Of a stretch of 64,000 nucleotides of DNA, positions 1-29,041 are shown one piece after another. Made by a program: the position numbers and the translations under genes. The DNA is from a virus. Lineage: Duplodnaviria; Heunggongvirae; Uroviricota; Caudoviricetes. The stretch spans positions 11,528 through 75,527 of IMG/VR virus record IMGVR_UViG_3300028832_000129. The stretch is one strand, 5' to 3'. The notes beneath the pieces are model-generated. The model made no database searches. It was not told where the DNA came from and worked only from the letters and a program-made list of their open reading frames with translations. Positions within the stretch are counted from its first letter, which is position 1; each line of letters opens with the position of its first letter.

Positions 1-23
1 GCTACCAGGAATCCTGCCACAAC

Positions 24-1547
24 ATGTCCATGGTTACCCGGCTGTTCCCCATCGCCAGCTACGAGCTTACAGCGACGAGCGAGCCGTCGACTAATGACCC
101 GAACAGGAGCGAACGCGGAAGCGCGAAGAGTATCAAGTACGTAATCCGGATGGACCTGAAGTCCGCATATCAGGGCGTCCGCGCATATCTCGATACTTTG
201 ACTTATCAGAAGAGCGATACCGAAGGGGTTGAGCCGGAAGACATCGCAGTGTATACTTCCAAGAAACCGAACTCTTTCAAGTTCAACCGTATCGGTATTT
301 ACGCGGTTCCCGTCACAATCAGGCATTTCTACAAGGAAGGCGATGCTGCTAACCGTAAGGATTGCAGGGCGACCCATTACCAGATGGAGATTTCCCCGGA
401 TGCGAAGCCCGAACTGTTCGCCGTGATGCAGGTCGACGAAGTGTGCATGTCGGAAGACGGCTCTTTCGGCCTCAGCGACTACAATACGACTTTCGTGCTC
501 AACCTGGAAAACGTATCGGACAATACTTCTCTCTGCACCAACCCGGAAGTGTACTACAACCTTGCCGAGAACGAGGCCATTACCTGGTACCAGAACCAGC
601 TTATCGCTACGGCCGGGTTGTCCGAGGCGGTGACCAACCTTGGCGTGAACATGGCCCACATGATGAACCGTCTGAATACCGGCAACGGAAATTGCGGGCC
701 TTCCGAACTTACCAACGTGACTACAGTGTCGAACGAGACGGCACAGGTTAACTCTGACTGGGAGGCCGACTGCGGTGTCGCGATGATTCTGAATAAGCCG
801 GATGTACCGGTAATAGATTCTGATACGGGTGCAGTCAGCGTGAATGGGACGACCAAGGGGTATGTCATCCCTAACCAGCTTCAGCCTGCTGGTGACACAA
901 CTACCCCAGTATATATTAACGAGCAGAAGCAATTTGTCGCTTGTTCTGACGTTGGTTATAGTGATAGAAATACCATATCAAGCTGGTGTGACAGTTCATT
1001 CAGATTTCAATCAACAAGTACCAGTGATAATTGGAGACAGCTAAGTAGGAATCCTGCGTATTTTAGCAGTCCTTCGGGAATGGCATCACTCCATTATGAT
1101 GGTTATTGGTATGTAATGCTTAACTGCTACTGGCCAGCTTTTTGCCCTGATGGCACAGGTACAATACATGTAGCAGTAGAAATTATTCCAACTAACTGTA
1201 CAATATCTTTTCCCTCCGTGACTGGTGGCGTTATAGGTACCATTAATGACCATCAAGCGATTATTACCGAGAATGTTAATTGCCTGTCGAATGAATGTTT
1301 GAGTGTACTCCATGAATTGATGATGGTGGTCTCGGGTTTTGACAGCGGCGCGAGCGCCATAGCATTCCATTGGTGGTTTAAAATCGTTGGCACGACAACT
1401 GAACGGTGCGATGTTGATGCGTCTGGCCCGTCATCTCCGTCAGGAAATGCTTGGACGGCATTGCCATGGCATGTATATGATGAGCGTAGGGAGTCATTGG
1501 ACGTATATCGCCCAAAGCGCTTGACTATGTATGCACAGCGTATATAA
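24..1547 (+). CDS. Hypothetical virion or tail-fibre-like protein, 507 aa. The C-terminal half is Cys-rich and of lower GC.
   Basis: Long intact ORF at the head of the + strand structural block. The 5' ~850 nt is high-GC and the 3' ~650 nt is clearly AT-richer, suggesting a mosaic. No recognisable catalytic motif. Confidence 0.5.
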   Translation: MSMVTRLFPIASYELTATSEPSTNDPNRSERGSAKSIKYVIRMDLKSAYQGVRAYLDTLTYQKSDTEGVEPEDIAVYTSKKPNSFKFNRIGIYAVPVTIRHFYKEGDAANRKDCRATHYQMEISPDAKPELFAVMQVDEVCMSEDGSFGLSDYNTTFVLNLENVSDNTSLCTNPEVYYNLAENEAITWYQNQLIATAGLSEAVTNLGVNMAHMMNRLNTGNGNCGPSELTNVTTVSNETAQVNSDWEADCGVAMILNKPDVPVIDSDTGAVSVNGTTKGYVIPNQLQPAGDTTTPVYINEQKQFVACSDVGYSDRNTISSWCDSSFRFQSTSTSDNWRQLSRNPAYFSSPSGMASLHYDGYWYVMLNCYWPAFCPDGTGTIHVAVEIIPTNCTISFPSVTGGVIGTINDHQAIITENVNCLSNECLSVLHELMMVVSGFDSGASAIAFHWWFKIVGTTTERCDVDASGPSSPSGNAWTALPWHVYDERRESLDVYRPKRLTMYAQRI

Positions 1548-1642
1548 TTCGGCAATAATGATGTAAATATCGAGTTCAGGCCGTTTTCTGGCCAAATGAT
1601 ATAGTTTTCCTCTCGTAGAACCCTACAGAGAGGAAATTTTAT

Positions 1643-2155
1643 ATGAAAATGACCGTCAAGCACAGCTATCTTATCCAGCTTGCCAACATTCTTGCAAATT
1701 CCGCCAGGATTTTCACCGGCGACTGCCAGGGAAGCGTCGCCTACAAGGTGTACATGAACCGCAATACCGCCAAGACCTACCTTGACGGCTTCATCCAGGC
1801 CTTCCCGGAAGACCCGAAATGGTTCGAATACACCCAGAAGCACGACAGCGTGTATGCCGAGGCCAACGTGCAGACGGCAGCCGAACTCGCCGCCCTTCCC
1901 CAGGAAAAGCAGGCCGAAATCACCGAAGCCGTGGCAAAAATCGATGCCGAATACAAGGACGTCATCGAAAAGAACCGCGCCATGGAGGCAGAACGCCGCA
2001 AGACCCTCGAGGAGATGGTGGAAGTGGACCTCTACACGGTAAAGCCGACCGACATCCATATCAAGGGTGAAAACTCCTGGGAAATCTGGGAAATCCTCTA
2101 CAACGACGGCAACGGCATCATCCGCGATGACGAAGCCAAGCCGATGGAGGCATAA
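1643..2155 (+). CDS. Hypothetical protein, 170 aa.
   Basis: Intact ORF. The AGAGG upstream is the inferred RBS. Coiled-coil-like KQAEITEAVAKIDAEYKD segment. Confidence 0.5.
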   Translation: MKMTVKHSYLIQLANILANSARIFTGDCQGSVAYKVYMNRNTAKTYLDGFIQAFPEDPKWFEYTQKHDSVYAEANVQTAAELAALPQEKQAEITEAVAKIDAEYKDVIEKNRAMEAERRKTLEEMVEVDLYTVKPTDIHIKGENSWEIWEILYNDGNGIIRDDEAKPMEA

Positions 2156-2158
2156 CAT

Positions 2159-3301
2159 ATGGCAACACTGAGTGCTTGCATTGTCGTCAAGAACGGCAAG
2201 GGCAGCATACTCAGGTGCCTGGACGCGTTGCTGCCCATGGCAAATGAGTATGTCGTAGTGGATACCGGCTCAGTTGACGGTACACTGGAACTCATTGCCG
2301 ACTGGCAGAAACACCATCCCAAGCAGAGGCTTATCCTCGACAAGGTTGGGCGGAAGTTCCACGATGCCGACGGGGTGTTTGACTTCGGCGCGGCAAAGGA
2401 CTATGCTATCTCCCTTGCCACTTGCCAATACGTCATGTGGGTGGATGTCAACGACATCCTCCTTGACGGGAAGCACGCCAGGGAGCTGTTCCAGAAAATC
2501 GTCTCGAAGTACCCAACGGCCGGCATCAGCATGCTGACCAAGGTCACTCCGACCCATTCGTTCCCGAGGCTGCGCATCCTCCCGAGGGAAAGTGCTAAGT
2601 TCAAGGGGATTATCCACGAGATGGTGGTCAACACTAACCCGGACGCCCCCACGATACATACCAAGTGCACGTTCGAGAACTACAAGTCCAGCAGGGACAT
2701 CCTCCGCAATATCGCCGGGCTCAAGAAGTCCTGGGAACAGGAACGCACCCAGCGCACGGCGTTCTATTTCGGCAATTCCTATATCGACCTGAAGGACTAC
2801 GGGCACGCATACGAATGGTACAGTGTGGCTGTAGACGCCTTCCCCGACCAGCACAACGAGGACAGGCTGAAGTCGCTGGAACAGATTTGCTCCATGATTG
2901 TGGCCACTAGGACAGACCTGGAGGAACTCGGCGCCCGGTCGCTGCAGCTAATCGAGGAGTTCCCTACCAGGGGCGAAGGGTACTATTACAGGGCCCGGTA
3001 CAATTTCGAGACCGGGAACTACAACATGGCCCTCAAGTGCCTCGACCAGCTGATGACCATCAAGGCGCCCAAGATGCACAACCTCTGGCTCAACTCGAAG
3101 ATATACGACAAGGAGGAAATCCGTTCGATTATCTTCATGGTGAAGGAGGAACTGCAGCGCAACGAGTCGGCCAGCCTAATCGACGCCGACCCGATGCAGC
3201 CCGACATGATAGACGCCGGATACGGGTACGGGGGGTATGACGGGCTGCCCGCCCACCTGAATTTCGGCACTACCGCGCCGGGATACAACGCGTTCATTTA
3301 A
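2159..3301 (+). CDS. Family 2 glycosyltransferase with a C-terminal helical, TPR-like extension.
   Basis: N-terminus CIVVKNGKGSILRCLDAL...YVVVDTGSVDGTLELI matches the GT2 DxGSxDGT nucleotide-sugar binding fold. Followed by a rho-independent terminator. Confidence 0.65.
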   Translation: MATLSACIVVKNGKGSILRCLDALLPMANEYVVVDTGSVDGTLELIADWQKHHPKQRLILDKVGRKFHDADGVFDFGAAKDYAISLATCQYVMWVDVNDILLDGKHARELFQKIVSKYPTAGISMLTKVTPTHSFPRLRILPRESAKFKGIIHEMVVNTNPDAPTIHTKCTFENYKSSRDILRNIAGLKKSWEQERTQRTAFYFGNSYIDLKDYGHAYEWYSVAVDAFPDQHNEDRLKSLEQICSMIVATRTDLEELGARSLQLIEEFPTRGEGYYYRARYNFETGNYNMALKCLDQLMTIKAPKMHNLWLNSKIYDKEEIRSIIFMVKEELQRNESASLIDADPMQPDMIDAGYGYGGYDGLPAHLNFGTTAPGYNAFI

Positions 3302-3303
3302 GC

Positions 3304-3332
3304 GGGGGCGGTGAGGAACCGCCCTTCTTTTT
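3304..3332 (+). terminator. Rho-independent terminator.
   Basis: GGGCGGT-gagga-ACCGCCC hairpin followed by TTCTTTTT. Confidence 0.6.
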
Positions 3333-3383
3333 GGCCCACAACAATCATAAACTACGGAAAACTGACTGTCCAAGGTACTAGCG

Positions 3384-6300
3384 ATGAACACTCTTTACGA
3401 CTTGGTTACTAAAATCGACGCGCTTACGGCAAATTCGCAGCAAGTCCTGAACGCCCTAATCAGGTCATGCGTGGCCTCCGGGTCGTCCAGCGGCTACAAG
3501 GTGAAAAAATACGGCGAGGAGATAGAGCTGGACCGGGCGGACATCTACCATCTTTACGATTTCTACCAGTCATGGGAGGCCGAGGGCTTCCCGTCCGACG
3601 AGTCCGAGTTCAATTCGCTGCTCGCCAGGGCAGATGCCCGCTGGAGGGTCGGCGAGGGCGATACGAGTACCCTGGCCAGCGACGCCGTCGCCAAGCACGC
3701 GAAGATTCTGTACCTCACCAAGGAACAGGCCGCCAAGCTAGAGGACGAGAATACCAGGGAAGCGACCGAGGCTCAGCTGAATACGAGCTACTGGGTCAAC
3801 CGGATTAGGGAATCCGCTACCCCGAAGGGCACCATTTCTAGTGCGCCAATCCCTCTCAACCTGCGTACCCCGCTGTACGACGAGAACCTTTCGGTCAAGT
3901 CTTTCAGTCAGTTCGAGACTTACCTGTTCCCCATGGGCTACCACCGTGCGGAAATCCTCGGGACTCCCGGGAACGGCGAGGACTATGTCGCCGGCGGACG
4001 CAACTGGACTATTGACGTCACTGACTTCCTTACACTCAGCGGGAACCATATCCTGCTCGGCAACAACAGCCTCCCCGTAAACAAGCTAGAAGGATACGGC
4101 GACAAGAGCCTCAATATCAGCTGGGGCAACGAGAGCTACGCCTTCGGTAACCTGTCGCTCGCCTTCGGCGACCATTCCGTGGCGCAGGCTGACGGTTCGC
4201 TCATATTCGGCAACCACTGCTATGGCCAGGGAATAGACTCGTTCATTGCCGGCGGCGACCGCAATCTCACGGTAATGGACAACGCGTTCGCGACGAACCA
4301 GCGCAATACGGCTGTCGCCAAGAACAGCTTTGCGGCAAATTACAACAACTATGCCGGCGGCTGGGGTTATGACTTTACCTTTATCGGGTCCGCCGACCCG
4401 AACGTGGTGAATACCGAGTGCGACGTGACCTATATCGAGTCCGAGGACGTTTGTGTATCGAATAAGACTGTAACCGATGTGCTCGGCGACAGTGCACTAT
4501 ATAAGGTGCTCTGCATTTCTGCTGATGACGTGACGCTTGCCAAGCTTCCGTTTGAGGAAACCATGCAGGTGGGCGACTATGTCGTTATCTATAACATGTG
4601 GGTAAAGAAGGATGGTTTCCAGAATACTGCCACTAGCATAGACGGGTATGCCGCCGATACGGTGATTGCCAAGATTACCAATATTACAAGGGTTAACATC
4701 GAGGGCACTAGTGACCTGGACCACTATGAAGTCACTCTGTCTACTCCGGTTCCTATCAAGAGCAAGAACGGCGTGTTTGGGGGCGGAACGGTTTCCTCAT
4801 ACATGAGGAGGGTTGTCCGGCATGATATCGACGGGAATCTCCTGGACAGGGACGATGTGTTACTTGGACTCAACTCGACTACCTTTGGACATGGCCATTC
4901 GGCAATCGGGCATAACCAGACCGTTGTGGGCCAGATGAGCGTTCCGAACATCGATGCAAAGTTTGTCGTCGGTACAGGCAGCTCCTACATATTCAGCAAG
5001 GACGAGGACGTATACAGGTCAAATTCGCTCGTTATCGGCGATACGTACAGCTATATGAAGCTGGCCAACGGCAGGAGCTATATCGGCGTGTCTACGCATA
5101 GCCAGCAAATCGATGACATGGGGGCGGACGATAATGGGACGGTGACATTGCCTAAGGGAACGGTGATGGCCACCAGGGACAAGTACACTCATGATTCAAC
5201 TAGGGTAGCCACCGATTCGAAGCTTGCATTCATGCAGGCCGAAAACAACCAGGGACCTGTGTCCAGGGTATGTATAGGCAGTACGATGCCTAGCACTGCC
5301 GGAGTCGGAACCTATCCTACCGCGTTGATGCAGAGCGTAAAGGGCACGACGGTAATTGCCGGCGGCGTCACGTATGTCGACGAGGTAACCGAACAGAAGC
5401 GTAACCTTGTGGAGACTCTTATCGATGCATCCCAGGTCATCATTTCCGGGGACGACAACGCTGTCGGAATCTATGCAAAGGATGGAATCGACATCAGGAA
5501 CGTCAACCCGTCCCGAGGCATCAACATCGAGACAAAGAACTGCATTGCGCTCAGGTTCAAGAACCTTGTTCTTGACGGGGATGATACGTTCGGGTCATTG
5601 ACCGCTACCGGTCGGGCACTGTCGTTCATCCTGGACAAGCAGGATGGGTCTGACAATAACGGGGCGCTTGATTCCATCCTCTGGGGTCATACCACGGGCA
5701 AGAGCGGCTTTTACTACATTGACGGTGGCAACAGCAATTCCAGACTGTTCGATGCAGCTGCCATTACCATGGGGACGACATCCAAGTATGACGGGAACCG
5801 GCTCCATCTGTACAACAGCGTACAGGCAAGCATAACCGACAACAAGTATCACGTTGCATCCCTGTCTATCCCGGAAGTCTCTACTGTCGTTCCCAGTGGC
5901 TATGCGTTACGCCCGAAAGTAACTACCGGTATAATTGACGGTGTAGGCGGTGCCGTTGGCAATGTGCTGACCAGCAAGGAAATCCCTTACATGGACGATA
6001 TCGGCGTATGGTCTTCTGCCCCGATGTCATGTTTCGGATTTATTAGGGGAGGCTCGTCGGTTTCGACACTTGACGCGGCATGCGATTTGTCCGATATCGA
6101 CGACTACGTGTATATGCCGTTGTTGCGGTTTGATAGAGATAGTAATGCATGGGTCTATAACCCTAGTAAAATATATGCCAAGATTTCTGCATCCGGTGGC
6201 TCCCGGAATGAATCCTATCTTCTAAGGTACAACGAGGCACGTATTGAATTGATGCATAATGACAACGGCACCACAGTTAAGTTTGGTGAAATGTCGGTAA

Positions 6301-6845
6301 TGTCTACATCTATCAATGATAATGAGGTTGATGTACAGGGAGAACTCACGTTTATAGTTAACGGTGAAACAAGCGAATTTTTAACGCGAATAAGTGATGG
6401 CTTCAGAATACCATTCATACCGGGATTTGCTACCCAGAGTACGGGTGACAAGTTTGTGCAGGCGGGCACTCCGCTGGCGAATAACGCCATATACAAGCGT
6501 ATAGCCGGTCGTCAGCAGTTGGTTACTAGACTCGACGGCGGTTATTATAGTTCATGGGGATGCAGCGGTGACGATGCCGACGACGACAATGTTTCGTATT
6601 ATGGTTTTGGCATTCAGCCGGGAATTCTGTGTATGGAAATACGGCGGCATACTAATTTTGCTACTCACTGGGAAGGCGATAAGCCGTACAGGTTCCGCTT
6701 ACAGGGGAAAGTGCCATTCGAGGCAACCAGCGAATGCATGGGGATGAACATCAACACTAGATGGAATGACGCATTGCGGGCATGTTATAAGAACAGGGTA
6801 TTGTATCCGATAAGTGAACTGGCCGCCATTCTGCAGGGAGTATAA
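3384..6845 (+). CDS. Large tail-fibre or receptor-binding-like protein, 1,153 aa.
   Basis: Repetitive Asn/Gly/Ser-rich beta-helix-like repeats (NISWGNESYAFGNLSLAFGDHSVAQADGSLIFGNH...). The last ~250 codons, from about 6100, are markedly AT-richer than the rest. Confidence 0.55.
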   Translation: MNTLYDLVTKIDALTANSQQVLNALIRSCVASGSSSGYKVKKYGEEIELDRADIYHLYDFYQSWEAEGFPSDESEFNSLLARADARWRVGEGDTSTLASDAVAKHAKILYLTKEQAAKLEDENTREATEAQLNTSYWVNRIRESATPKGTISSAPIPLNLRTPLYDENLSVKSFSQFETYLFPMGYHRAEILGTPGNGEDYVAGGRNWTIDVTDFLTLSGNHILLGNNSLPVNKLEGYGDKSLNISWGNESYAFGNLSLAFGDHSVAQADGSLIFGNHCYGQGIDSFIAGGDRNLTVMDNAFATNQRNTAVAKNSFAANYNNYAGGWGYDFTFIGSADPNVVNTECDVTYIESEDVCVSNKTVTDVLGDSALYKVLCISADDVTLAKLPFEETMQVGDYVVIYNMWVKKDGFQNTATSIDGYAADTVIAKITNITRVNIEGTSDLDHYEVTLSTPVPIKSKNGVFGGGTVSSYMRRVVRHDIDGNLLDRDDVLLGLNSTTFGHGHSAIGHNQTVVGQMSVPNIDAKFVVGTGSSYIFSKDEDVYRSNSLVIGDTYSYMKLANGRSYIGVSTHSQQIDDMGADDNGTVTLPKGTVMATRDKYTHDSTRVATDSKLAFMQAENNQGPVSRVCIGSTMPSTAGVGTYPTALMQSVKGTTVIAGGVTYVDEVTEQKRNLVETLIDASQVIISGDDNAVGIYAKDGIDIRNVNPSRGINIETKNCIALRFKNLVLDGDDTFGSLTATGRALSFILDKQDGSDNNGALDSILWGHTTGKSGFYYIDGGNSNSRLFDAAAITMGTTSKYDGNRLHLYNSVQASITDNKYHVASLSIPEVSTVVPSGYALRPKVTTGIIDGVGGAVGNVLTSKEIPYMDDIGVWSSAPMSCFGFIRGGSSVSTLDAACDLSDIDDYVYMPLLRFDRDSNAWVYNPSKIYAKISASGGSRNESYLLRYNEARIELMHNDNGTTVKFGEMSVMSTSINDNEVDVQGELTFIVNGETSEFLTRISDGFRIPFIPGFATQSTGDKFVQAGTPLANNAIYKRIAGRQQLVTRLDGGYYSSWGCSGDDADDDNVSYYGFGIQPGILCMEIRRHTNFATHWEGDKPYRFRLQGKVPFEATSECMGMNINTRWNDALRACYKNRVLYPISELAAILQGV

Positions 6846-6846
6846 T

Positions 6847-8643
6847 ATGGCCGACAATCAAAAATACATTCGTGCCAACATACGTGACATCAACGCATTG
6901 GAACACATCACTTCCGACGTGGCAAAATCCAGGTCGAACTACGAGTCCATCCTCAACGGCCTCGTCGCCTGGAATACCACGGACAACCCGAACGTCACGG
7001 TCCGCCTTTCGACGGACAACTACCCGTATTTCGTCGACTACACTTTCCCGTCAAGGTCGACCTTCGCTACAGGCGGCGGCACAGTCGCCGAGGAGGGGCT
7101 GTATCCGGGAATCTTTGACTATGCCAACATGATAGACATGGTGGCCACCACTTCGGACGAGGCGACGCTCAGGCTGACGGTCGCGTCGGGAAACCGTGGA
7201 AGCTGGACACTGTTCGAGGAAGCCATGGTCACCGAGGATGGCACCACGGCGTCGATGCCGTACAAGAAGGGGCAGTTCATCCGAAGGCCCAACACCAATA
7301 CGGGAACGTACCTCGTATGCGTCGCCACGGCCGATATAGACGAAGGCACCACGCTCGACGAGTCCAATACCAGGAAAGTAGTGACACGATGGAAAATTGA
7401 CGACTACGCGTCATACGGGGAATATCCCGGTACAGTCACGTTTACTGTCGACACGAGTTCCGACACGGTCAAAATCGTATCGGCCTATGTCCTCCGCGGG
7501 CCCAGTACCAATGCTGCCCCAGGACGCCCGAACAGCGCATGGGAACGTATAGCCGACTCGATTTCGGGAAAAAAGGTAGGCACGATGTTCGAGCCGGGGA
7601 AGCTCTACATCTATTCTTCCCAGGACGACCTTTCCGATGCCGCCCTGTACATGTACATAGGCGACCCCAAGGAGAAGCCTGCGGACAATTCGCTGGTACC
7701 CGTGGACGAACACGGGGAGCTCGATGACAAGGACTGGTACGGCCCGGTAATCATGGTTCCGGTAACCAACATCACCAGGTCAGCGGTGCTGCACCACGTG
7801 CCTACCACGGACATCAACGGGTTCATCCTCAGGTCCAACTCGTACGACACGACGTCCGTATCCGCCATTTCGAACCTGGCTGTACACGAGGGGACTTCCG
7901 AGCCGAACAAGGGCCTCAAGATATTCGGCACTAGCAACTATGCCAGGTGGCCGGATACCGAGTCAAGGATATGGCATACCGGCATTGACTACTCCACTTC
8001 GAGCCACTACACGGCAGAGATGGTGTTCCACCATGCAAGCGACGAGGTGAAGACCTGCAACATCGTCAACTACGACGGGCCTGACCTTGACCGCGGCCTA
8101 GCAATCTACCTCCCGGTAAACGACCGCATCGTCGGCGACAACGGGGAGGATGCTTACGTTGAGCCGAAGGACGGCGCGATGTTCGAGTTCCTGTTCAGGA
8201 TTTGGCCGAACACGGCATACAACGGCGCGACCACGCCCGACCTCATCATCAACAAGGCCCAAATCTACGTGTACAGCGCGAAGCGTTCCGACGAGCTTGA
8301 CAGCGCGAGGGTGCTCGCCAAGTTCAGCATGGCAAGGCTCACCAACTTCTACCTGTGGGCGGAAAACGTGGCCGTCCCGGCTCGTCCCGTGTTCTACAAG
8401 GCTAAGTTCATCTACTCGAGGGACGACAAGGAATGGCGCACCTACGACTATTACCAGGTGCCCGACCATGTGTTCCTGTCCCCGAAGGGCTTCGTCGACC
8501 CGGCAAACCGCAATGACGACACCTACGGCGAGGACGGAGATTTCAGCGGCGTGCAGACGGCGGGCTTCCCGCTCATGCAGGACCCGTTCGCTGAACTGGA
8601 CATGTCTCCCGTGCGGATGAACCGCATCGAGCACAACGACTGA
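6847..8643 (+). CDS. Hypothetical structural protein, ~598 aa.
   Basis: The ATG at 6847 directly after the upstream TAA is the likely start, rather than the track's 6814. Long intact ORF followed by a terminator hairpin. Confidence 0.5.
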   Translation: MADNQKYIRANIRDINALEHITSDVAKSRSNYESILNGLVAWNTTDNPNVTVRLSTDNYPYFVDYTFPSRSTFATGGGTVAEEGLYPGIFDYANMIDMVATTSDEATLRLTVASGNRGSWTLFEEAMVTEDGTTASMPYKKGQFIRRPNTNTGTYLVCVATADIDEGTTLDESNTRKVVTRWKIDDYASYGEYPGTVTFTVDTSSDTVKIVSAYVLRGPSTNAAPGRPNSAWERIADSISGKKVGTMFEPGKLYIYSSQDDLSDAALYMYIGDPKEKPADNSLVPVDEHGELDDKDWYGPVIMVPVTNITRSAVLHHVPTTDINGFILRSNSYDTTSVSAISNLAVHEGTSEPNKGLKIFGTSNYARWPDTESRIWHTGIDYSTSSHYTAEMVFHHASDEVKTCNIVNYDGPDLDRGLAIYLPVNDRIVGDNGEDAYVEPKDGAMFEFLFRIWPNTAYNGATTPDLIINKAQIYVYSAKRSDELDSARVLAKFSMARLTNFYLWAENVAVPARPVFYKAKFIYSRDDKEWRTYDYYQVPDHVFLSPKGFVDPANRNDDTYGEDGDFSGVQTAGFPLMQDPFAELDMSPVRMNRIEHND

Positions 8644-8668
8644 CCGGATACGCGAATGGATTAGTTTA

Positions 8669-8700
8669 GTGGGCGGCCATGCGGCCGTCCACTTGTTTTT
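8669..8700 (+). terminator. Rho-independent terminator.
   Basis: GTGGGCGGCC-atgc-GGCCGTCCAC hairpin plus TTGTTTTTGGG. Confidence 0.6.
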
Positions 8701-8741
8701 GGGCACCCGGGAGCATAAACTACGAAAAACGCGAGAGTCTT

Positions 8742-11700
8742 ATGAGCGAAACGAACCCCTACATTGTCAAGGAACACAAAGGCGATTTCGAGAACACCAT
8801 CCAGTATTTCGTTACTGGCAGGCCTCTTACCACCGATGAGGAAATGCGCCCGGACAGCCACGGGGTGCACCCGGTGAGTCCCCTGGGGTTCATGATTAAG
8901 GAGGACGGCACCACCCTGGCGCCGGCCGAGCCATTGAGCGGGTTCTCCGCGTACGGGGATTCCGGATGTACCGCGCAGGAGGCGTACGACGACTCGTATA
9001 AGGTATCCGGCAAGTACTATATGTACGGCAGCGACGTCATCTCGTTCCCCGTGCTGGACATACACCGCAGCGAGGACGGTACCAAGATTCTGGTTACCGT
9101 GAACGGCCTCCTTCCGCAGCCGGAAAACTCGCAGAGCTTCTATTTCAGGAATATTACTTCCGACGACTATACGCCTACAGGACTCGTCGGCACTACGTTC
9201 AGCAATCTTGACTCGTTGACCCAGGATGTCGGCAGCGGCACCACGGCAATCGCGCTTACGACCGACATCGTCTTTGACGGTACTGTTGGCGAGGGCAAGC
9301 TGGCATTTTGTGTAAACCATGAGGTCAGCGGCCACAAGTTCCTTACTGTCGAGGACCCGGATTCCGATACGCTTAGCGGCATATATGTATGGGGTGAATC
9401 CGAGGGCGAGCCTATCCGCAAGATATTCAACTGGGGAAGCTGCGAAGTCGGCGAGACGGAGGATACCGGCGGGCCGTGCTATGAAGGGAACGGGTACAGC
9501 GATACAGAGGTTGCCAAGTGGGTAAACGAGAAGGTCGGCGCGATGACGCACTACGGGTGCCATCCGTCGAGCGAGCCCGGTGACATCCGCGATGCGGGTG
9601 GACTAGTGAACTGGTTCGTCACCAACGGCGACGTGGACATTACCGGGGGTGCCGGGAATACTTCCGTGATGATTCCGGGGTTCGGACTGGGCCAGGGATT
9701 CCAGGGAAAATATGCCGTGGACACCGGTACCAACGTAAGGACAGAGGACCCGGACGAAACTTCGGAACATAAGTGGCTCACGTTCGGCTACGGCACCAAG
9801 CACGATGCATACGCTGCCGACGTGGGCAAGACTGCACTCCCGCTCGACTGGCCGTTCTCCCATTCGTCTGATTACGCCGACGAGAAGAGGGACAACAACA
9901 TAACACTGATTAAGGACGGGGTGCAGTTCTACGACGGGACTGACACGAGCGTGGTAGGCGGGCTCACCCGGATTTCCCGGGAGTGCCACGTGTGCGACGG
10001 TACTGGGGTCGTAATAGAGGGGCCATGCCATAACTGCGGCGGTACCGGCGAGGAGCCGGATTGCGAGACTTGTGGCGGCTCGGGCAAGGTAATTGACTCC
10101 GTTACTCAAGAGGAACACGAGTGTCCCGATTGCCATGGTATGGGCTTCCTGGGAGGTCACCGCTACGTTATGGACAAGGTACACGTGTGCCTATATAACG
10201 ACTTCAAGCCGAGCGACGGTGCGCATGACCATACTGCCGGCACTACCGTACTGAAGAAGACATTTGTAAATCTCGCCACCCCGATTACCCAGAAGGACGG
10301 CGATACGTTCGAGGTGACCGTGTCCTTGCCGAACGTCAACATCCCTGACGCATATTCCGGCAACGACGCGATGCAGAACCTCAGCGGGTACTATGCATAC
10401 GTATCGCAACCGAGAGTGTATGTCGTAAGCGGTACGTGGGAATTCAGCGACACCAGGGTGTTTTTCGATACCAAGGATTTGCTGACGTATGACCTTGGCG
10501 ACACGATGTTCAAGGCCAGGAAAGGCTTTCAACTCGATAACAATACCGAGGTAAAGGTTAAGATTAGCTTCGACGCTTACAGCAGAAAGAAGTTTGCCGG
10601 CATTGGCATCATTGCGGACGGACGGTATGTCGTGCTGAAAGAAGCACTGAATATTCCGGCTGTACTCCTGCGCAAAATCAAGAGGAGCGCAGATTCGGAC
10701 GGAAACATCAAGGGCTCCATCTGCGGTGCCGCCTACGTGGAGGCAAACAACGATACGCTGACACAGGCAATACAGACCGATATCGGTCTGAATGCCGTGC
10801 GAAATGAAGAGGGTGCTCTTGGAAAGGACATGGGAAATGGTGAGGCAAACTCTCTCCAGCAATACAACAAGCTTTATACGGCCGATATCGAGAATGGTAC
10901 CAGGAAGCATGTCCTGTTTGAAGCCGACGGGACTCCCAGGAAAGACCAGCGGCAGATTGTGGCGACTGTCTACCCGACCACCACGAATACGTTCCCGTGG
11001 GCGCTGACGCACCGACGGAAGCTCGGCTTCCTCGACAAGCTGATGACAATGGAGTCCGACGCCGGGGTCAACGGGATGTTCGCCAGGGTTTACAGGATGA
11101 ACCGGGCAATCCTTGAAAGCATACCGATGTCCGAATCGCTGGCTCCCGAGGACTACCCGCTGGACATGTACAGCACGGCATCCTGGAATTCCCAGGAGAA
11201 CGACAGGCTATCAATCATAGGGGCGCTGCTCACGGTCGTCATGGACCCGGATGTCGACGTTTCCAGGAAATCTCAGGCCCAGCCAGTACGCCGTGCTCTT
11301 GCCGCGGTGAAGATGCTGGCCGAGGACTACAGGAACGCCAGGGTATCCAGGCTCGGGGATGTCGGCGCCGGCGTCACGTCCTATGTGTCTTACGCCAAAA
11401 TTCGCAAGGACGGGTCGGCACTTTCGGACTATTCGAGCCTCGGCAGCACGGTCGACCTGAATTCCCGCAACGACTACGAGGGAATGGCTAACGCCATAAG
11501 GCTGCGGCATCTCCCGGAATTCCTGGCTGCGGCCGGGACGGACGAGTATACCGGGGAACCGCTTTCCCCCAGCCTGGACGCTTATCCGTACAGGGATAAC
11601 TCCAAGTATTCATACTACAGCGGCAACCCGTATGGCTACGGTACATTCGACACGACGACACGCACCGAGGAGGTGCCGTGCGAGGTCGCTTCCTCTACCG

Positions 11701-13172
11701 GAACCGAGGCGTGGCCGATGAGCAACAGCATAGTAAAGGCGTGCATAGGAAAGGTGGATGACACCGTTACCGTGGAGGAGCTGTACCGCTCGGCGGAACT
11801 GCACGCAATCGACTTCAGCGACATAGGCGACATCCTGCAGCCGCAGGCACACCGGTCGGGGACGGACATATCCTGGCTTGACGCAATCGACGCGTTCACG
11901 AAGATTGTATCGCCGGACAACATACCTGTACCGAGCACGGGCGGCATTGATTACACCCTGTTGTTTGACCAGAAGGAAGACCAGCTACCGTTCATCATGG
12001 CCGATGCGTACGGATACTACAGGGTACTTACTGCTATTGACTGGGACGGTGCGGATTACTTCATAGCCACTACGATGCCGACCGACGATTCGCTGGCATT
12101 GTTCCTCAAGGACTACGTTCCTGGCTATGCGGCGCGGCTTGCCGTCAGAAACTGGGACAGTTACCGAGTGAAGGTGACAAGCCCGGCGACGCCGTCACCT
12201 GATACGGCCTATCTTACCAGGATGCACTGGTATGACCCTGAGTGCGACGCGGCGAGCCGCGGTATCTATGCGTCCGACGCGTTCATTGTCGGCAACGAGT
12301 TCTCCGACATGAACATGAACAGGATTGAGTTCAGCAGCGCGGACAAGGCCCGTTCGCTGAACTGCAGCGTCCCTCCGTACAGCGTGAAGGACGACTACAA
12401 TATTCTGGCGCCGTTCGCTACCGAGAACGACCCGTACTCGGTCAGCTACATCCGCGTGTTCATGAAGTTCGCATTCTCCGAGGATGCCGGCCGATGGTAC
12501 TGCATGGACTACAGGCAGGCACCGGTTTCCTACCTGAGCCCGCTTTACGGCGCGAAGGCGCTCGACCAGACTGTCGACGGAAAGAGACTATGGTCTCGCC
12601 CGGAATGCGTGTCCGCGAAGTGGCAGGCCCCGTTGATGCATACGTACGAGGAGTACTGCCCGCTGGACATCAACCCGTCACTAGTCCGCTCGGTGATGCG
12701 CAAGGACGCCAACGGGGAATGCCCGCTGATGTTCCCGTATCTCCCGGTGGATGACGGCGGTCTCGGCCTGAACGCTCCCGTGAACAAGGCGGGGACTTCT
12801 ACGGCGGAGTCAATCGCCTCGATGCCGCACGCGAACTTCTGGAGCGTCCGGGAGTTCCTACGTCCAGCCACGGGCGCCGCGAACGTGGGCGACATACCGA
12901 GATACTACAAGGACCATGGTGAATGGACATGGGGAGAAACCGGAGGTATCATGTCGGATGCGGTCCTTTGGGGACAGTACGACTATCCACACAAGGGAAA
13001 CCCGGAATACCATATTCCGGACACCGATATCCCGGATGCTGACCTCAGCAAGCGCAGCATGGTATATGCACGGCGCAATGGCACTACTCAACTGATGGAC
13101 ACCGGCGATATACAGGTGGGGCCGCATGAGAATACTGTGCTCGCCGTATCGTACGGGGCAGGCCGCGAATAA
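8742..13172 (+). CDS. Giant virion or tail protein, ~1,477 aa, with an internal DnaJ-type CXXCXGXG zinc-finger domain.
   Basis: The ATG at 8742 (MSETNPYIV) lies downstream of the terminator, so the track start at 8679 sits inside the hairpin. Residues CHVCDGTGVV...CHNCGGTGEEPDCETCGGSGKV...CPDCHGMGF (about nt 9982-10150) form four CxxCxGxG repeats. Confidence 0.55.
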   Translation: MSETNPYIVKEHKGDFENTIQYFVTGRPLTTDEEMRPDSHGVHPVSPLGFMIKEDGTTLAPAEPLSGFSAYGDSGCTAQEAYDDSYKVSGKYYMYGSDVISFPVLDIHRSEDGTKILVTVNGLLPQPENSQSFYFRNITSDDYTPTGLVGTTFSNLDSLTQDVGSGTTAIALTTDIVFDGTVGEGKLAFCVNHEVSGHKFLTVEDPDSDTLSGIYVWGESEGEPIRKIFNWGSCEVGETEDTGGPCYEGNGYSDTEVAKWVNEKVGAMTHYGCHPSSEPGDIRDAGGLVNWFVTNGDVDITGGAGNTSVMIPGFGLGQGFQGKYAVDTGTNVRTEDPDETSEHKWLTFGYGTKHDAYAADVGKTALPLDWPFSHSSDYADEKRDNNITLIKDGVQFYDGTDTSVVGGLTRISRECHVCDGTGVVIEGPCHNCGGTGEEPDCETCGGSGKVIDSVTQEEHECPDCHGMGFLGGHRYVMDKVHVCLYNDFKPSDGAHDHTAGTTVLKKTFVNLATPITQKDGDTFEVTVSLPNVNIPDAYSGNDAMQNLSGYYAYVSQPRVYVVSGTWEFSDTRVFFDTKDLLTYDLGDTMFKARKGFQLDNNTEVKVKISFDAYSRKKFAGIGIIADGRYVVLKEALNIPAVLLRKIKRSADSDGNIKGSICGAAYVEANNDTLTQAIQTDIGLNAVRNEEGALGKDMGNGEANSLQQYNKLYTADIENGTRKHVLFEADGTPRKDQRQIVATVYPTTTNTFPWALTHRRKLGFLDKLMTMESDAGVNGMFARVYRMNRAILESIPMSESLAPEDYPLDMYSTASWNSQENDRLSIIGALLTVVMDPDVDVSRKSQAQPVRRALAAVKMLAEDYRNARVSRLGDVGAGVTSYVSYAKIRKDGSALSDYSSLGSTVDLNSRNDYEGMANAIRLRHLPEFLAAAGTDEYTGEPLSPSLDAYPYRDNSKYSYYSGNPYGYGTFDTTTRTEEVPCEVASSTGTEAWPMSNSIVKACIGKVDDTVTVEELYRSAELHAIDFSDIGDILQPQAHRSGTDISWLDAIDAFTKIVSPDNIPVPSTGGIDYTLLFDQKEDQLPFIMADAYGYYRVLTAIDWDGADYFIATTMPTDDSLALFLKDYVPGYAARLAVRNWDSYRVKVTSPATPSPDTAYLTRMHWYDPECDAASRGIYASDAFIVGNEFSDMNMNRIEFSSADKARSLNCSVPPYSVKDDYNILAPFATENDPYSVSYIRVFMKFAFSEDAGRWYCMDYRQAPVSYLSPLYGAKALDQTVDGKRLWSRPECVSAKWQAPLMHTYEEYCPLDINPSLVRSVMRKDANGECPLMFPYLPVDDGGLGLNAPVNKAGTSTAESIASMPHANFWSVREFLRPATGAANVGDIPRYYKDHGEWTWGETGGIMSDAVLWGQYDYPHKGNPEYHIPDTDIPDADLSKRSMVYARRNGTTQLMDTGDIQVGPHENTVLAVSYGAGRE

Positions 13173-13198
13173 ACTTTTAGAGGAATTGACGGTAGAAT

Positions 13199-14821
13199 AT
13201 GGCACAGATTGAACAAGAACGAATTTCCGCGCTGGATAGCTTGGTTACCCAGTCAGCGGACGGCGTTAACGAGCTCATAGAGTCCACTGTTGAAGCAGCA
13301 AAGTGGGCCATGGCGGTGGACTACATTGTCCCCGATAGTGATACCGCCAACCAGGAAGACTTGGTAGACCAGGGTACAAAGCGTATACCGGTAAGCCGAA
13401 TTGGCTTGCTGACTGATAGCCGTACCGTTCCACAGTCCATGTTACCTCACCAGATGGACGAGATTCTTAATGGACGAATGGTGCATGATACAGGTACCGG
13501 AAAATGGACATTCACCACTACCGTCGACGGGGTGCAGGTGGTATATGTATGCCCTGGTCCCCCGGTAGGAGATGAACGGCGGCCGGACATTAGTACTATA
13601 TACCGGGATGTAAGTGACGAAGACCAGGATGGAAACCCAATCTACACTCAGTATAGATATGTGCCGGATGACAATGCTGATGTTGGAACTGCCTCCGAAA
13701 CAGGGAGTTTCGTTCCTATTCCGAGTGACCTAGTCATGATAAATGGTGCCGGGACGGTAGTATCTGATAACGATGGCTCATACACCAGGGCCGTTGATAT
13801 TGTTATCGGTGCCCCTGCGGCGGAAACCAATACACATAATAGTCTCTTAATCAGCAGTGGCAAACTTTCGCATGCTACGAGTGGTGTGGCTGCCGGTACG
13901 TATCCAACCCCTCCGCAATCGTCTCAGTTGACGTTTGGCGGCACATTCGCCGTAGATGCATTTACCGTTAACTCGACTGGCCATGTTACCGCAGTCACTC
14001 CGTATTCGCTGACTGTGCCTAATACGGCGGCTTCACTATCTACCGAGGGATTGGTAAAGATAGGCAGTACCGATGACATACAAAATATAGGCCAGCAAAA
14101 ATCGGCGGGTACAACGACACCGAGTCCTTATGTAAAGGTTGCCGCCGCCGACCATGTCCATGCAGCATCCCATTTGATTCTGGAAAATATCAATGATTCC
14201 ACCAATTTCCAAAATGGGAGATTGGAATATACGGGTGCTGGTTCGGATATTGAATATAGTTTCAAGAATATTTTGAAGGCTACACTTCCGACTAATGGGC
14301 CGACTGCTGCCGGACAACTGTTGGTCAGCGTCGGAAATTCCGTTGCTAATATGCAGGCCGTCTGGAGAAATCCCGATGATGTATTTGCGCCAGAGTATGC
14401 ATTTGTGAAGGTTGCTAGCGGATGTACGTGTGGTACCTCTCCGGTTACCGTTCCATTCGATACATCAACGGAAACCCATGGCGGTAGCATGACGGTTGCA
14501 CAAACCGAATTTGGCGGGCTGAAGGCAGGCAAGGCATATGTCGTGTGCTTTAACTTTGGGTTCTCACATTCGTCAGCGACAACGTTTATTGAAGATGCCG
14601 TTGTAACAGTACAGACCGGCGCCGATTCCCAGTGGACAAGTGCGGCGGAGTATCGTTATTATCTGGACGGCTCAATTACTGGCGTATCAAACTATATAAA
14701 CGGTTGCATCATATTCTCGGTACCCAATGGTCATACATTAGCGAGACTCCGGCTGAATACAGGCCGGTCAACGTGGAACATTACTACTGACAGTAGCGTA
14801 CAAATTGCAGAGGTTAAGTAG
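13199..14821 (+). CDS. Tail-fibre or receptor-binding-like protein, paralog A, 540 aa.
   Basis: Shares a long collinear block with the next ORF: DIVIGAPAAETNTH...TFGGTF..DAFTVNSTGHVTAVTPYSLTVPNTAASLSTEGLVKIG...QQKSAGTTTPSPYVKVAAADHVH. Moderate GC. Ends with TAG. Confidence 0.55.
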   Translation: MAQIEQERISALDSLVTQSADGVNELIESTVEAAKWAMAVDYIVPDSDTANQEDLVDQGTKRIPVSRIGLLTDSRTVPQSMLPHQMDEILNGRMVHDTGTGKWTFTTTVDGVQVVYVCPGPPVGDERRPDISTIYRDVSDEDQDGNPIYTQYRYVPDDNADVGTASETGSFVPIPSDLVMINGAGTVVSDNDGSYTRAVDIVIGAPAAETNTHNSLLISSGKLSHATSGVAAGTYPTPPQSSQLTFGGTFAVDAFTVNSTGHVTAVTPYSLTVPNTAASLSTEGLVKIGSTDDIQNIGQQKSAGTTTPSPYVKVAAADHVHAASHLILENINDSTNFQNGRLEYTGAGSDIEYSFKNILKATLPTNGPTAAGQLLVSVGNSVANMQAVWRNPDDVFAPEYAFVKVASGCTCGTSPVTVPFDTSTETHGGSMTVAQTEFGGLKAGKAYVVCFNFGFSHSSATTFIEDAVVTVQTGADSQWTSAAEYRYYLDGSITGVSNYINGCIIFSVPNGHTLARLRLNTGRSTWNITTDSSVQIAEVK

Positions 14822-14823
14822 GA

Positions 14824-16374
14824 ATGGACCCGATAATCTACAAGAGAACCCACAAGAGGATACGCGAGCTTAATCAGTTCGAGGAAACTCAGGGTGGAGT
14901 TGACCCAATCGGAACACTGATGGGCTCGTCGGTGGCAAGTAAATGGTGTACAGCATTTGATGCGAGTGATTCATCCGTTGAACCTGATGATTCGTATAGC
15001 GTGCCATTAAGCCGATTGATTCTTCTTAGCCCGAACCGGAAAGTTCCGGCTGCGTTTTTGCCATCCTCGGTTTCTTCCGGCGAACTGCTGGTTACCCGCA
15101 CATATTCAGGTAGCGGCGACCCGAGGGAATGTCTACCTAATGTGGGTGAACAATATTACGGCAACATGAACCTTATCTTTAAGGTGGAAAGAACTGGACA
15201 GCCCGATGCATTTTATAGGTACGCATACACTGATTCCATGGATATACAGGAATGGTATGAAGTATACCATTCGCTATCGGACCGGCATGGGTTCTCTAAC
15301 GGTCAGGGTACAGTTGTTAGCGATACCATAAATCCGTCGACTGGAGCATATCATAGGGAAATTGATATCAATATCGGAACACCGGCTGCACATACGGACA
15401 CTATATTATCGATTACGAGTAGCAGTCCGTATAAGCTCGTGCATACGTTGAGCCAGAACACCAATGTCGATGCACCGGTACCTGCATCCGAGCCTGTGTT
15501 GTCGTTTGGGGGGTCATTATATACCCCAACACTAACTGTTGACAGTACAGGACATGTATCTAGCATAGTGTCGCAATCTTATACTTTGCCGAACACCCCC
15601 GCGGAAAAGGGTACGAACACTGATATTGCCGGTCTTGTTCGGATAGGGAACAGCAGTACATCTATAGGAACCCAGAAATCCGCCGGGCATACATCGGTGG
15701 ACAGTGAGCACCCATATATTCTGGTATCGGCCGCCGACCACAAGCATGATATGGCGAAGCTTGCATTTGTCGACAGCAATGATGACATTTCATATCAGGG
15801 CATGACGGATGTACCTGGTGTGGGAACGATAAGATATGATTTCAACCATATCGTGCAGGCCACGCTGCCAAGTGCCCCATTGTCTGCCGGACAGTTTGTC
15901 CTTACTGCCGAGTCGGCAACGACCCAGTCCAATTATGGAAGTACACGATGGACCACTATCGATAATGCGTTGCCGAACCAAGAGGGTATTGGTTCCGGGA
16001 CGGCTGTAATGCGAACCGTAGCTACTTCGCTTGGGTCGATTGCGCCGTTGGTTCAAGGTGGTATCTATCTGGTTACAATGAACATCATGGTTGAAGTTAC
16101 CGGTGGAGTCGGTGCACAGTCGGTTGCGCCTGTGCCTACGTTGCATGAACTTGAACTGACCATAGGAAACCATGTTGAAAAAATTACAATTCCCGGTTCC
16201 TGGACATGCACTGCACTTCCGAATAGTGGCATGCGATGGCTTGGCATGGCGACATTTATAATGATGGCGGCCGGTACAGCTGCACCAATGTCTGGCCGTA
16301 TGCCGGCACCGGACACCACTTATGATGGCGTATTTAAAGTAACGTGCGGTGCAATAGCCGAGCGTCTCAGGTAG
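14824..16374 (+). CDS. Tail-fibre or receptor-binding-like protein, paralog B, 516 aa.
   Basis: Tandem paralog of 13199..14821: DINIGTPAAHTDT...SFGGSLYTPTLTVDSTGHVSSIVSQSYTLPNTPAEKGTNTDIAGLVRIG...TQKSAGHTSV...ILVSAADHKH. Confidence 0.55.
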   Translation: MDPIIYKRTHKRIRELNQFEETQGGVDPIGTLMGSSVASKWCTAFDASDSSVEPDDSYSVPLSRLILLSPNRKVPAAFLPSSVSSGELLVTRTYSGSGDPRECLPNVGEQYYGNMNLIFKVERTGQPDAFYRYAYTDSMDIQEWYEVYHSLSDRHGFSNGQGTVVSDTINPSTGAYHREIDINIGTPAAHTDTILSITSSSPYKLVHTLSQNTNVDAPVPASEPVLSFGGSLYTPTLTVDSTGHVSSIVSQSYTLPNTPAEKGTNTDIAGLVRIGNSSTSIGTQKSAGHTSVDSEHPYILVSAADHKHDMAKLAFVDSNDDISYQGMTDVPGVGTIRYDFNHIVQATLPSAPLSAGQFVLTAESATTQSNYGSTRWTTIDNALPNQEGIGSGTAVMRTVATSLGSIAPLVQGGIYLVTMNIMVEVTGGVGAQSVAPVPTLHELELTIGNHVEKITIPGSWTCTALPNSGMRWLGMATFIMMAAGTAAPMSGRMPAPDTTYDGVFKVTCGAIAERLR

Positions 16375-16666
16375 GCGTCCCGCCGAATTTTACCATGTTG
16401 TGAATGAAGAACCTGATTCCGCAGTCACTGCATTCGCGGAAGGTTCCCTTTATGTCCCTCCCGGAAATCCCGGGACCTCCCGTGGGTTCCCCGCAGGACG
16501 GACAGGTGAACTGCCCGAGGAACGAGTCGAGCGTAACCGACTTGGGAAGGGTTATGTCGACCGTGCCGTCATCCCAGAAGCGCACGGTGCATTCCGGGTG
16601 CTCCTTCATGAAGGAGGCCACCTTTACCAGCTTCGGGTTGATTTCCAGCAGCTTCTCGGGTGTCAT
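16367..16666 (-). CDS. Small zinc-ribbon protein, 99 aa.
   Basis: Minus-strand ORF with CPSCGEP...CSDCG Cys pairs. Part of a four-gene minus-strand island. Confidence 0.4.
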   Translation of the reverse strand: MTPEKLLEINPKLVKVASFMKEHPECTVRFWDDGTVDITLPKSVTLDSFLGQFTCPSCGEPTGGPGISGRDIKGTFRECSDCGIRFFIHNMVKFGGTPT

Positions 16667-16670
16667 GGCT

Positions 16671-16901
16671 CTACCACAGGTACTTTATCGCGGCGAACGT
16701 GGCGAACGCGCAGCTCGCCAGGACCGGGATTGTGAGGCATATCCCGACGACGGCCCAGAAGATTCTCCGGTAGTGCCATTCGTCAGTGTCGATGTCGTAC
16801 AGCCTGAGGAAGTTCATCGATATGATGAACTCGGCCGCGAGGAACAGCCAAACCACCTCGAAGATGTTGAGGTACTGGTCGTCTTTGACTCTAGCAATCA
16901 T
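16671..16901 (-). CDS. Small membrane protein, 76 aa.
   Basis: Two hydrophobic helices (WLFLAAEFIISMNF, AVVGICLTIPVLASCAF). Confidence 0.4.
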   Translation of the reverse strand: MIARVKDDQYLNIFEVVWLFLAAEFIISMNFLRLYDIDTDEWHYRRIFWAVVGICLTIPVLASCAFATFAAIKYLW

Positions 16902-18238: not shown

Positions 18239-18505
18239 ATGAATGCCAGGATTGAAGACTTTGCAGCAGATTACGTGGTCGTCCCGCTCTTCTCGGCGGG
18301 CAGTTACGGAATCGTCAACGTGAACCGCGGCGACATGACCGACAAGGAATGGGCCGTATGGAACCGCGCACGCACTGCCCCGGAAATCAAGGAAGCCATC
18401 AACAAGGCAGCTCGCCCGTCGGAAATCCCGGGAAGGGTGATTGCTGTCCTAGACGAAAGAGGAATACCGAGATGCCTTACAAATCAGGAACGTCCTATTA
18501 TGTAA
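18239..18505 (+). CDS. Hypothetical protein, 88 aa.
   Basis: First ORF after the promoter motif. Overlaps the start of the next gene. Confidence 0.35.
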   Translation: MNARIEDFAADYVVVPLFSAGSYGIVNVNRGDMTDKEWAVWNRARTAPEIKEAINKAARPSEIPGRVIAVLDERGIPRCLTNQERPIM

Positions 18506-24431: not shown

Positions 24432-24461
24432 AAACTATGGATATCGAAGTGGACGGTTGCC

Positions 24462-28964: not shown

Positions 28965-28980
28965 TTTTTGCTATATTTGG
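28965..28980 (+). promoter_or_regulatory. Phage promoter motif TTTTTGCTATATTTGG.
   Basis: Exact motif ~60 nt upstream of the 29042 gene. Confidence 0.5.
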
Positions 28981-29041
28981 GGTAGGCCATACGTGCCTAC
29001 CCTTTATTATATTGTCAACACCATAACTATCAAGGTTATAA

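Follow-up and report, generated by a model that had tools for sequence, protein, structure and literature searches.

Exchangeable, recombining and fixed parts of a putative fibre module in an uncultured giant phage

Mosaic tail fibre genes with exchangeable C-terminal receptor-binding parts include H of P2, S of Mu and S of P1, gp37-gp38 of the T-even phages and stf of the lambdoid phages. Other phages carry several receptor-binding proteins, such as the tailspikes TSP1-4 of CBA120, the dual tailspikes of K1-5 and SP6, and the long and short fibres of T4. Examples of mosaic tail fibre genes were reportedly treated by Haggard-Ljungquist et al. in 1992 and by Tetart et al. in 1998. In this study, a stretch of 64,000 nucleotides (the window; positions 11,528 to 75,527 of the virus record IMGVR_UViG_3300028832_000129 in IMG/VR, class Caudoviricetes) was analysed, with attention to a group of genes occupying its first 16,374 positions. 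With fair confidence, we regard this group as the fibre or adhesin module of an uncultured giant phage, in which a cassette is exchanged, other parts recombine patchwise, a pair of tandem paralogs is fixed and a glycosyltransferase is a constant partner. Coordinates given below refer to the window, and all features of the module lie on the plus strand.

Comparisons were made with relatives whose data are all short-read metagenome assemblies. L002 is the closest distinct relative, L005 is a contig 99.98% identical to the window, L007 is more than 99% identical, and L004 is more distant; L001, L013 (a 472-kb contig) and L014 were compared as well. Homologues of the module genes were located on metagenomic contigs of 200–472 kb. 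The gene order was kept throughout the clade: open reading frame 1 (ORF1), a gene for 170 aa, a GT2-TPR glycosyltransferase gene, genes for approximately 1150, 600 and 1500 aa, and the paralogs A and B.

ORF1 is cut by the window edge. An earlier sequence-only reading of this DNA, made by a model without database searches, had listed an ORF at 24..1547; the frame is real, remains open to base 3 at the edge, and is the 3′ part (1..1547, 515 codons) of a fibre-like gene whose whole product has 786 aa in L005. The N-terminal part is conserved in the clade, being 98, 86 and 61% identical to L002, L004 and L001, respectively. L002 was found to be collinear with the window at 95–96% identity over positions 1-673 and at 94.4% over 1596-16824, with no counterpart of 674-1595. 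In place of the window's cassette, V1 (668..1593), which consists of the 291-aa C-terminal module of ORF1 and a 3′ untranslated tail and has a G+C content (GC) of 0.464 and a third-codon-position GC (GC3) of 0.44, L002 carries 2062 nt of unrelated sequence, V2. The ORF1 proteins of the window and L002 read alike up to ...NLGVNMAHMMNRL and are wholly different thereafter, the left junction being directly after ...NLGVNMAHMMN. At the right junction (1594..1642), identity to both L002 and L007 resumes. L007, more than 99% identical on both flanks, has a third sequence, V3, between the same junctions, encoding another ORF1 C-terminus of 286 aa and an extra 226-aa gene. V1, V2 and V3 have no mutual similarity, are 926, 2062 and 1588 nt long, and all have a GC of 0.44–0.46. 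The ORF1 C-terminal module is genuinely exchanged as a cassette; the earlier proposal of an exchanged domain at this place is borne out by the unrelated V2 and V3 at the same junctions on backbones 95% and more than 99% identical. Homologous recombination within two conserved flanks would replace the whole module at once. The coding motif ...NMAHMMN would serve as one flank and the intergenic region together with the start of the 170-aa gene as the other, and this would give at least three unrelated alleles in otherwise near-identical genomes.

As in the mosaic tail fibres, the proximal part of ORF1 is conserved, the distal part is replaceable, and the junction lies in a conserved motif. As in mosaic fibre loci with assembly chaperones, V3 brings an extra small downstream gene. 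The product of this gene (L007 1089-1769, located 3′ of the alternative tip and containing an FFDGDR motif) had no family match in Pfam, PHROGs or NCBIfam; it may serve in the assembly of this particular tip, as happens in the fibre loci of Mu and P2, or be a small enzyme. Unlike the mosaic tail fibres, the ORF1 cassette has neither an invertase nor inverted repeats; it sits in a phage genome of more than 200 kb, and exchange is seen among strains more than 99% identical. Also unlike the P2, Mu, P1, T-even and lambdoid fibres, the module has no sequence or profile similarity to those families.

V1 contains one copy (747..812) of a widespread fibre repeat, AQVNSDW-x-A-x-GV-x-x-ILNKP, and a distal tip domain of approximately 190 aa (969..1544). 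A word-indexed protein search with the V1 module missed even V1 itself, and exhaustive searching with HMMER was needed. This gave 824 hits, nearly all to the repeat stretch; of the 150 best, 149 had the SDW...ILNKP motif, the median being 5 copies. The only relative found for the tip domain was the C-terminus of P0134 (41–44% identity, E 5e-42), a fibre-like 460-aa protein in the structural module of L010, which is a 34-kb phage contig with a P22-type portal. No further holders of the V1 tip were found in viral and bacterial genome collections, and V2 and V3 had no matches in viral contigs. Thus, as in the mosaic tail fibres, the V1 distal domain occurs also in an unrelated phage, and the match to P0134 agrees with the earlier suggestion that this tip is shared by other phages; we take it to reflect domain sharing between unrelated phages. 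As a donor of V1, L010 was ruled out, its copy having a GC3 of 0.70 and being only about 42% identical. Its codon usage is close to that of the giant-phage backbone (relative synonymous codon usage, r about 0.8), which hints at a common host or ecosystem.

A second route of variation would be patchwise recombination with diverged alleles, in the C-terminal module of the 1,153-aa fibre-like protein and in the protein of approximately 1,476 aa. The N-terminal 873 aa of the former (3384..6002) comprise a conserved, putative anchor (aa 1–226) and then a shaft; the C-terminal module of 280 aa (6003..6845; GC3 0.49) is fast-diverging and all-beta with two terminal helices. Among 97 homologs of the whole protein, alignment ends cluster at aa ~226, ~570, ~780 and, most often, 873, which corresponds to nt ~6003, where GC3 begins to fall. 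The shaft has YadA-head-like repeats near aa 248–267. The window protein scores 14.6 bits (E 0.045) against PF05658, below the 25-bit threshold, a value exceeded by the homologs P0036 (26.7 bits) and P0070 (35.2 bits).

The fibre C-terminal module is orthologous in the 18 closest homologs, where its identity declines along with that of the N-terminal part, and becomes undetectable below approximately 44% identity of the N-terminal part. In the relatives, identities of the N- and C-terminal parts were 95/80, 63/41, 58/35 and 43/22%, the C-terminal part being the faster in every one. Within the module, the patch 6012..6330 was only 77–79% identical in nucleotides to L002, with insertions and deletions, and showed a synonymous divergence (dS) of 0.38–0.49 and a nonsynonymous divergence (dN) of 0.19–0.27, against backgrounds of about 0.1 and 0.02. 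The rise of dS together with dN argues for an imported diverged allele, not in-place selection alone. No clustered differences were seen in this module among strains more than 99.4% identical. The C-terminal swap claimed earlier for this protein therefore holds in part: a patch was imported and a boundary exists at aa 873, whereas the module as a whole is orthologous in the closest homologs. Patchwise recombination and fast divergence, not a wholesale domain swap in this lineage, appear to account for it.

The ~1,476-aa protein (8742..13172; previously listed as a 1,497-aa ORF from 8679) has recombination hotspots at ~9870-10170, 10695-11030, 11330-11630 and 11895-12270, none of which is low in GC. 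In hotspot patches, dS against L002 reaches 0.76, 0.75 and 1.36. Patches in this protein also hold most of the differences among the strains more than 99.4% identical, with clusters at 10730-11030 and 11330-11630. It is the main strain-level recombination hotspot, and was missed by the sequence-only reading. A CXXCXGXG zinc-finger-like motif is located at aa 425–457 and is overlapped by the first hotspot; its DnaJ_CXXCXGXG score, 29.5 bits, is under the cut-off.

The tandem paralogs at the 3′ end of the module behave differently from the cassette. Paralog A (13199..14821, 540 aa) has a predicted shaft at aa 1 to ~390 and a tip at aa ~400–540 (nt ~14396-14818); paralog B (14824..16374, 516 aa) has a shaft of the A family at aa 10–361 and a C-terminal part of approximately 150 aa (nt ~15919-16371) unrelated to that of A. 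The two are 34% identical over some 386 N-terminal residues (E 1e-40), and their tip profiles showed no significant similarity (hhalign probability 15%). The paralogy noted earlier is thus real; what had been described as divergence between shared motifs is instead a shared N-terminus followed by a different C-terminus.

Both genes, with the whole gene order, are kept in L002, L004, L013 and L014, where A is 95, 70, 52 and 42% and B 98, 63, 37 and 32% identical to the window copies. All 30 full-length homologs of A (36–95% identity) are of the A type including the C-terminus; a scan of viral contigs with A gave no match. In comparison with L002, the pair has a flat dS of about 0.1, with dN/dS values of 0.22 for A and 0.13 for B. 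Differences among strains more than 99.4% identical were unclustered in the parts of A and B covered by their contigs, and pairwise distances of both genes rank the lineages as the neighbouring genes do. Full-length synteny, flat dS and congruent distances indicate that the A/B duplication is old. No evidence of exchange of A or B between lineages was obtained from dS, orthology or pairwise distances, and the earlier inclusion of this pair among horizontally exchanged segments is not supported by the same data. To describe the two genes as fibre duplicates that differ in their tips remains fair; the duplication is ancient, however, and not a recent expansion of the host range.

Modelled as a monomer, the A tip is a ten-strand jelly-roll beta-sandwich of approximately 130–140 aa that matches TNF/C1q domains, and on this model it is a TNF/C1q-type knob. 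It was likened to the binding domain of the short tail fibre of cyanophage A-1(L) (8ke9), PRD1 P5 (1yq8), the receptor-binding domain of mycobacteriophage TM4 gp23 (9n6a), the Sf6 needle knob (3rwn), and the BclA and F-ENA tips (1wck, 9h38). Unlike those knobs, to which it has only 6–16% sequence identity, paralog A has no collagen-like or coiled-coil signature in its shaft. A third way of varying host contact would accordingly lie, if these genes are fibres, in a fixed and ancient pair with a common shaft and different tips, of which the A tip may form a trimeric knob. The arrangement resembles that of the phages with several receptor-binding proteins in that the adjacent A and B share the proximal part and differ distally, suggesting two specificities per virion; both kinds of tip are probably present together on the particle. 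Unlike variable add-on tailspikes, A and B are ancient and fixed throughout the clade, and no depolymerase domain was detected in them.

Base composition had first drawn attention to this region. All three AT-rich segments claimed earlier were found in their places by sliding GC and by GC3, with GC dips at 750-1800 (0.40–0.48), 5850-7050 (minimum 0.417) and 13000-16350 (0.44–0.53); the surroundings, described then as uniformly about 60% GC, actually range from about 0.55 to 0.61. The corresponding low-GC3 segments (~670-1593, 5800-6845 and 13199-16374) have a GC3 of 0.44–0.49, compared with 0.72–0.87 in ordinary genes of the window and neighbours. The drop is confined almost wholly to third codon positions, GC at the first and second positions being normal. 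In a null test that drew synonymous codons according to their usage in 19 genes beyond the region of the earlier note, the C-terminal part of ORF1 (672-1544, GC3 0.44) gave z = −11.7, that of the fibre-like protein (6093-6842, GC3 0.49) z = −8.6, and the paralogs (0.47 and 0.475) z = −12.4 and −12.5, and genes adjoining the dips gave +0.4 to +3.5. The drop is thus significant against a shuffled-codon null, lying 8.6–12.5 standard deviations below it. Two further dips, milder at z about −3, lie at 4350-4950 and at 10350-10950 and had not been noted before.

Homologous phages partly share this composition, which bears on the earlier argument that a composition common to them would mean no mosaicism: dips of the same kind are present in relatives, and L014 has no GC3 dip in A and B. 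The V2 cassette has a GC3 of 0.45 in L002, and its ortholog in L004 has 0.49 versus 0.63 in the N-terminal part there. For A and B, GC3 is 0.57/0.63 in L004, on a background of ~0.69, and 0.66/0.72 in L013, on a background of ~0.83. Two regimes can be told apart in the codon-usage vectors. Within the backbone, segments correlate with one another at r = 0.95; V1, V2, V3, the fibre C-terminal module, A, B and other low-GC islands correlate mutually at r = 0.2–0.68, and at about 0 with the backbone. The other islands (GC3 0.37–0.52) lie at 23523-24431 (minus strand), 33030-33767, 37372-38232, 50089-51357 and 62781-63281 (minus strand), one of them being an RRXRR-HNH endonuclease. The codon usage of these outlying islands was observed to correlate with that of the fibre-tip modules and not with that of the backbone.

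The low GC3 of A, B and the fibre C-terminal module might reflect a gene- or region-specific equilibrium of mutation and selection in vertically inherited genes, for instance if GC-ending codons are under weaker selection or biased gene conversion where proteins evolve fast and contact the host. Several observations fit: A and B have full-length orthologs clade-wide with distances congruent with those of neighbours, their dS against L002 is flat, weaker dips recur in L004 and L013, the vertically inherited V2 has low GC3 in both L002 and L004, and the fastest-evolving proteins are the lowest-GC3 parts. However, V1 and V3, which are demonstrably exchanged, belong to the same low-GC3 regime with correlated codon usage; the GC3 shifts occur within genes, at the boundaries of modules; genes of expected low expression, such as the GT2 gene, have high GC3; and L014 has no dip. 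With the backbone risen to a GC3 of ~0.78 and A and B at 0.47, allelic import before the split of the window and L002 fits better than drift. This equilibrium deserves serious consideration, although we lean against it. Expression level as a cause was judged weak, as it cannot account for shifts within genes and the GT2 enzyme has a GC3 of 0.80. Since low GC3 is found also in V2 and in A and B, which are vertically inherited, it is by itself no proof of recent transfer. Every putative host-distal module bears it, irrespective of whether exchange is demonstrable, and we read it as a long-standing trait of the pool of tip modules that does not date any transfer to the recent past. It could stem from continual import of lower-GC sequence, from alleles replaced before the window and L002 parted, or from a region-specific balance of mutation and selection.

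Assembly chimeras formed at a conserved repeat could also produce apparent cassette variants, the data being short-read assemblies only and V3 being known from one contig that starts just 191 nt upstream of the junction. However, V1 was recovered independently from four or more samples; V2 came from two, and L004 has its ortholog. This recurrence makes chimeras unlikely. In addition, the V2 and V3 junctions coincide with those of V1, the ORF1 frame is kept open, and all three variants have the same unusual composition. An origin of the variants in assembly is, in our judgement, very improbable. Hypermutation by a diversity-generating retroelement was considered for the variable patches, as near-identical strains differ mainly in tight clusters, each confined to a short stretch of a large, putatively structural protein. 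It was rejected on the substitution spectrum, which includes all substitution types, many synonymous third-position changes, a rise of dS alongside dN, and insertions and deletions, and on the absence of a template repeat of any patch in the 64-kb window; no reverse transcriptase was present among the ORFs scanned, and this mechanism is hardly credible here. A segment that inverts within a single genome, like Mu G, P1 C or a shufflon, as suggested by a C-terminus alternating at fixed junctions and by an extra downstream gene in V3 like S/U in Mu, was rejected as having next to no likelihood, because no inverted repeats were found around 668-1593, no opposite-orientation copy nearby and no invertase was seen, and each contig has a single variant, the variants differing in length. 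The lack of inverted repeats favours allelic replacement between genomes, as proposed above for the ORF1 cassette.

The glycosyltransferase claimed earlier within the module was confirmed. The gene (2159..3301, GC3 0.80) encodes a GT2 domain (PF00535, 39.6 bits versus a cut-off of 23.3, E 6.8e-10) and TPR_2, and matches phrog_13126 (E 5.8e-22). It is the most conserved gene of the module, with 98.7, 95 and 85.8% amino acid identity to L002, L004 and L001, a dN/dS of 0.04 against L002, and codon usage of the backbone type; it is a core gene and not an accessory one. The best NCBIfam match was to the SunS peptide S-glycosyltransferase family (TIGR04195), with residues 3–337 aligned, and the closest relatives in the PDB were GmaR, the ThuS-type 7msk (residues 6–325) and SunS, with E values from 7e-7 to 3e-3. 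The protein resembles GmaR, SunS and ThuS in having its GT2 fold at the N-terminus and a TPR-like domain after it; unlike members of the SunS family proper, it scores far under the family cut-off. GmaR is the Listeria flagellin O-GlcNAc transferase, and SunS and ThuS are peptide S-/O-glycosyltransferases. As the nearest solved relatives glycosylate proteins, the acceptor is probably a protein; GT2-TPR would be a conserved partner of the module that most likely glycosylates a protein, plausibly one of the neighbouring fibres. Virion glycosylation is known in mycobacteriophages (Freeman et al. 2023, via PMC12619734). The virion glycosyltransferases of mycobacteriophages act on capsid and tail-tube proteins. 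The present locus is similar in that a GT2 gene lies inside a structural module. A strong terminator-like hairpin is present at 3304-3326, 3′ of the GT2 gene.

Two other conserved genes belong to the module. The 170-aa gene (1643..2155, GC3 0.77), which has no family match in Pfam or PHROGs, encodes a protein with 98, 86 and 71% amino acid identity to L002, L004 and L001. Directly 5′ of it, at 1604-1640, is a hairpin with a 9-bp stem, TTTCCTCTC-13 nt-GAGAGGAAA, which is part of the right junction of the cassette, overlaps the likely ribosome-binding site of the gene and is kept in L002 and diverged in L007. The 598-aa gene (6847..8643, GC3 0.78) encodes a protein with 96, 70, 70 and 66% amino acid identity among relatives; its true start is at 6847, in line with gene calls in relatives. 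A strong terminator-like hairpin at 8668-8693, 3′ of this gene, overlaps the ATG at 8679, which suggests that the following large ORF probably starts at 8742, as called in relatives.

The window phage encodes approximately 33 transfer RNA (tRNA) genes and a transfer-messenger RNA within 28632-42799, the latter at 38777-39136 with the tag ADNAFAYAVAA, as well as an NAD-dependent ligase (25985-28093), a CCA-adding enzyme (48172-49428) and the RRXRR-HNH endonuclease mentioned above. The tRNA array, transfer-messenger RNA, CCA-adding enzyme and ligase together indicate a giant phage with its own translation support. Megablast of the region against 50,697 deposited or cultured phages gave no match, nor did tblastn of the 1,153-aa protein, the V1 module and paralog A against the same set. 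Searches of every module and cassette protein against Pfam, PHROGs and NCBIfam matched only GT2 and TPR, and PDB sequence searches with the 1,153-aa protein and paralog A gave no match. The label of fibre thus rests on fold, motif and architecture, and not on annotation or proteomics. Similarly, the earlier designation of these genes as structural was a guess when made; fold, motif and architecture speak for it, and the lack of Pfam and PHROG matches other than GT2 speaks against it. A sigma-70 promoter scan was uninformative for this phage. Farther 3′, a 504-aa protein (24408-25922) has a C-terminal Fib_succ_major domain (PF09603, E 3e-17); it is possibly a further adhesin and a hint at the host phylum. 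A Fib_succ_major-type protein was also observed 3′ of the module in L013. A protein resembling M48/U49-type peptidases is encoded at 18349-19311 and is kept directly 3′ of the module in L013 and L014.

If the module does encode fibres, host-contact specificity would vary in the three ways described, namely by the exchange cassette, by patchwise recombination and by the paired tips. Several points weigh against this interpretation. Apart from the glycosyltransferase, no module protein matches a PHROG, a Pfam structural family or a cultured phage. The knob model covers the A tip only, and no fold was assigned to the fibre C-terminal module or V1. V3 comes from one contig only; no donor was found for any cassette, the V1-type tip of L010 being only ~42% identical and having a GC3 of 0.70. 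The GT2 protein, with 33.7 bits against a SunS family cut-off of 350, is not a member of that family. A wider proposition is that the tip modules form a long-lived compositional compartment (GC3 ~0.45 in a backbone of ~0.78) fed by a cross-family pool of tips, with core fibre glycosylation of the GmaR/SunS kind. We consider this unlikely; if true, fibre glycosylation would be a core trait of this giant-phage lineage.

To our knowledge, how uncultured giant phages recognise their hosts has not been described. The phenomenon described here is the familiar modular evolution of phage fibres, seen in an uncharacterised giant-phage lineage and resolved to the level of strains. The analysis names the part that is swapped (the ORF1 tip, with three alleles), the parts that recombine patchwise, and the parts that are fixed (the two putative fibres), and all of these are concrete targets for host prediction, engineering and structural work. 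It also gives a caution, as low GC3 rightly flagged the exchanged cassette and flagged vertically inherited genes equally, so that composition alone over-calls transfer. Finally, the conserved GT2-TPR gene offers a candidate with which to test whether a giant phage glycosylates its fibres.

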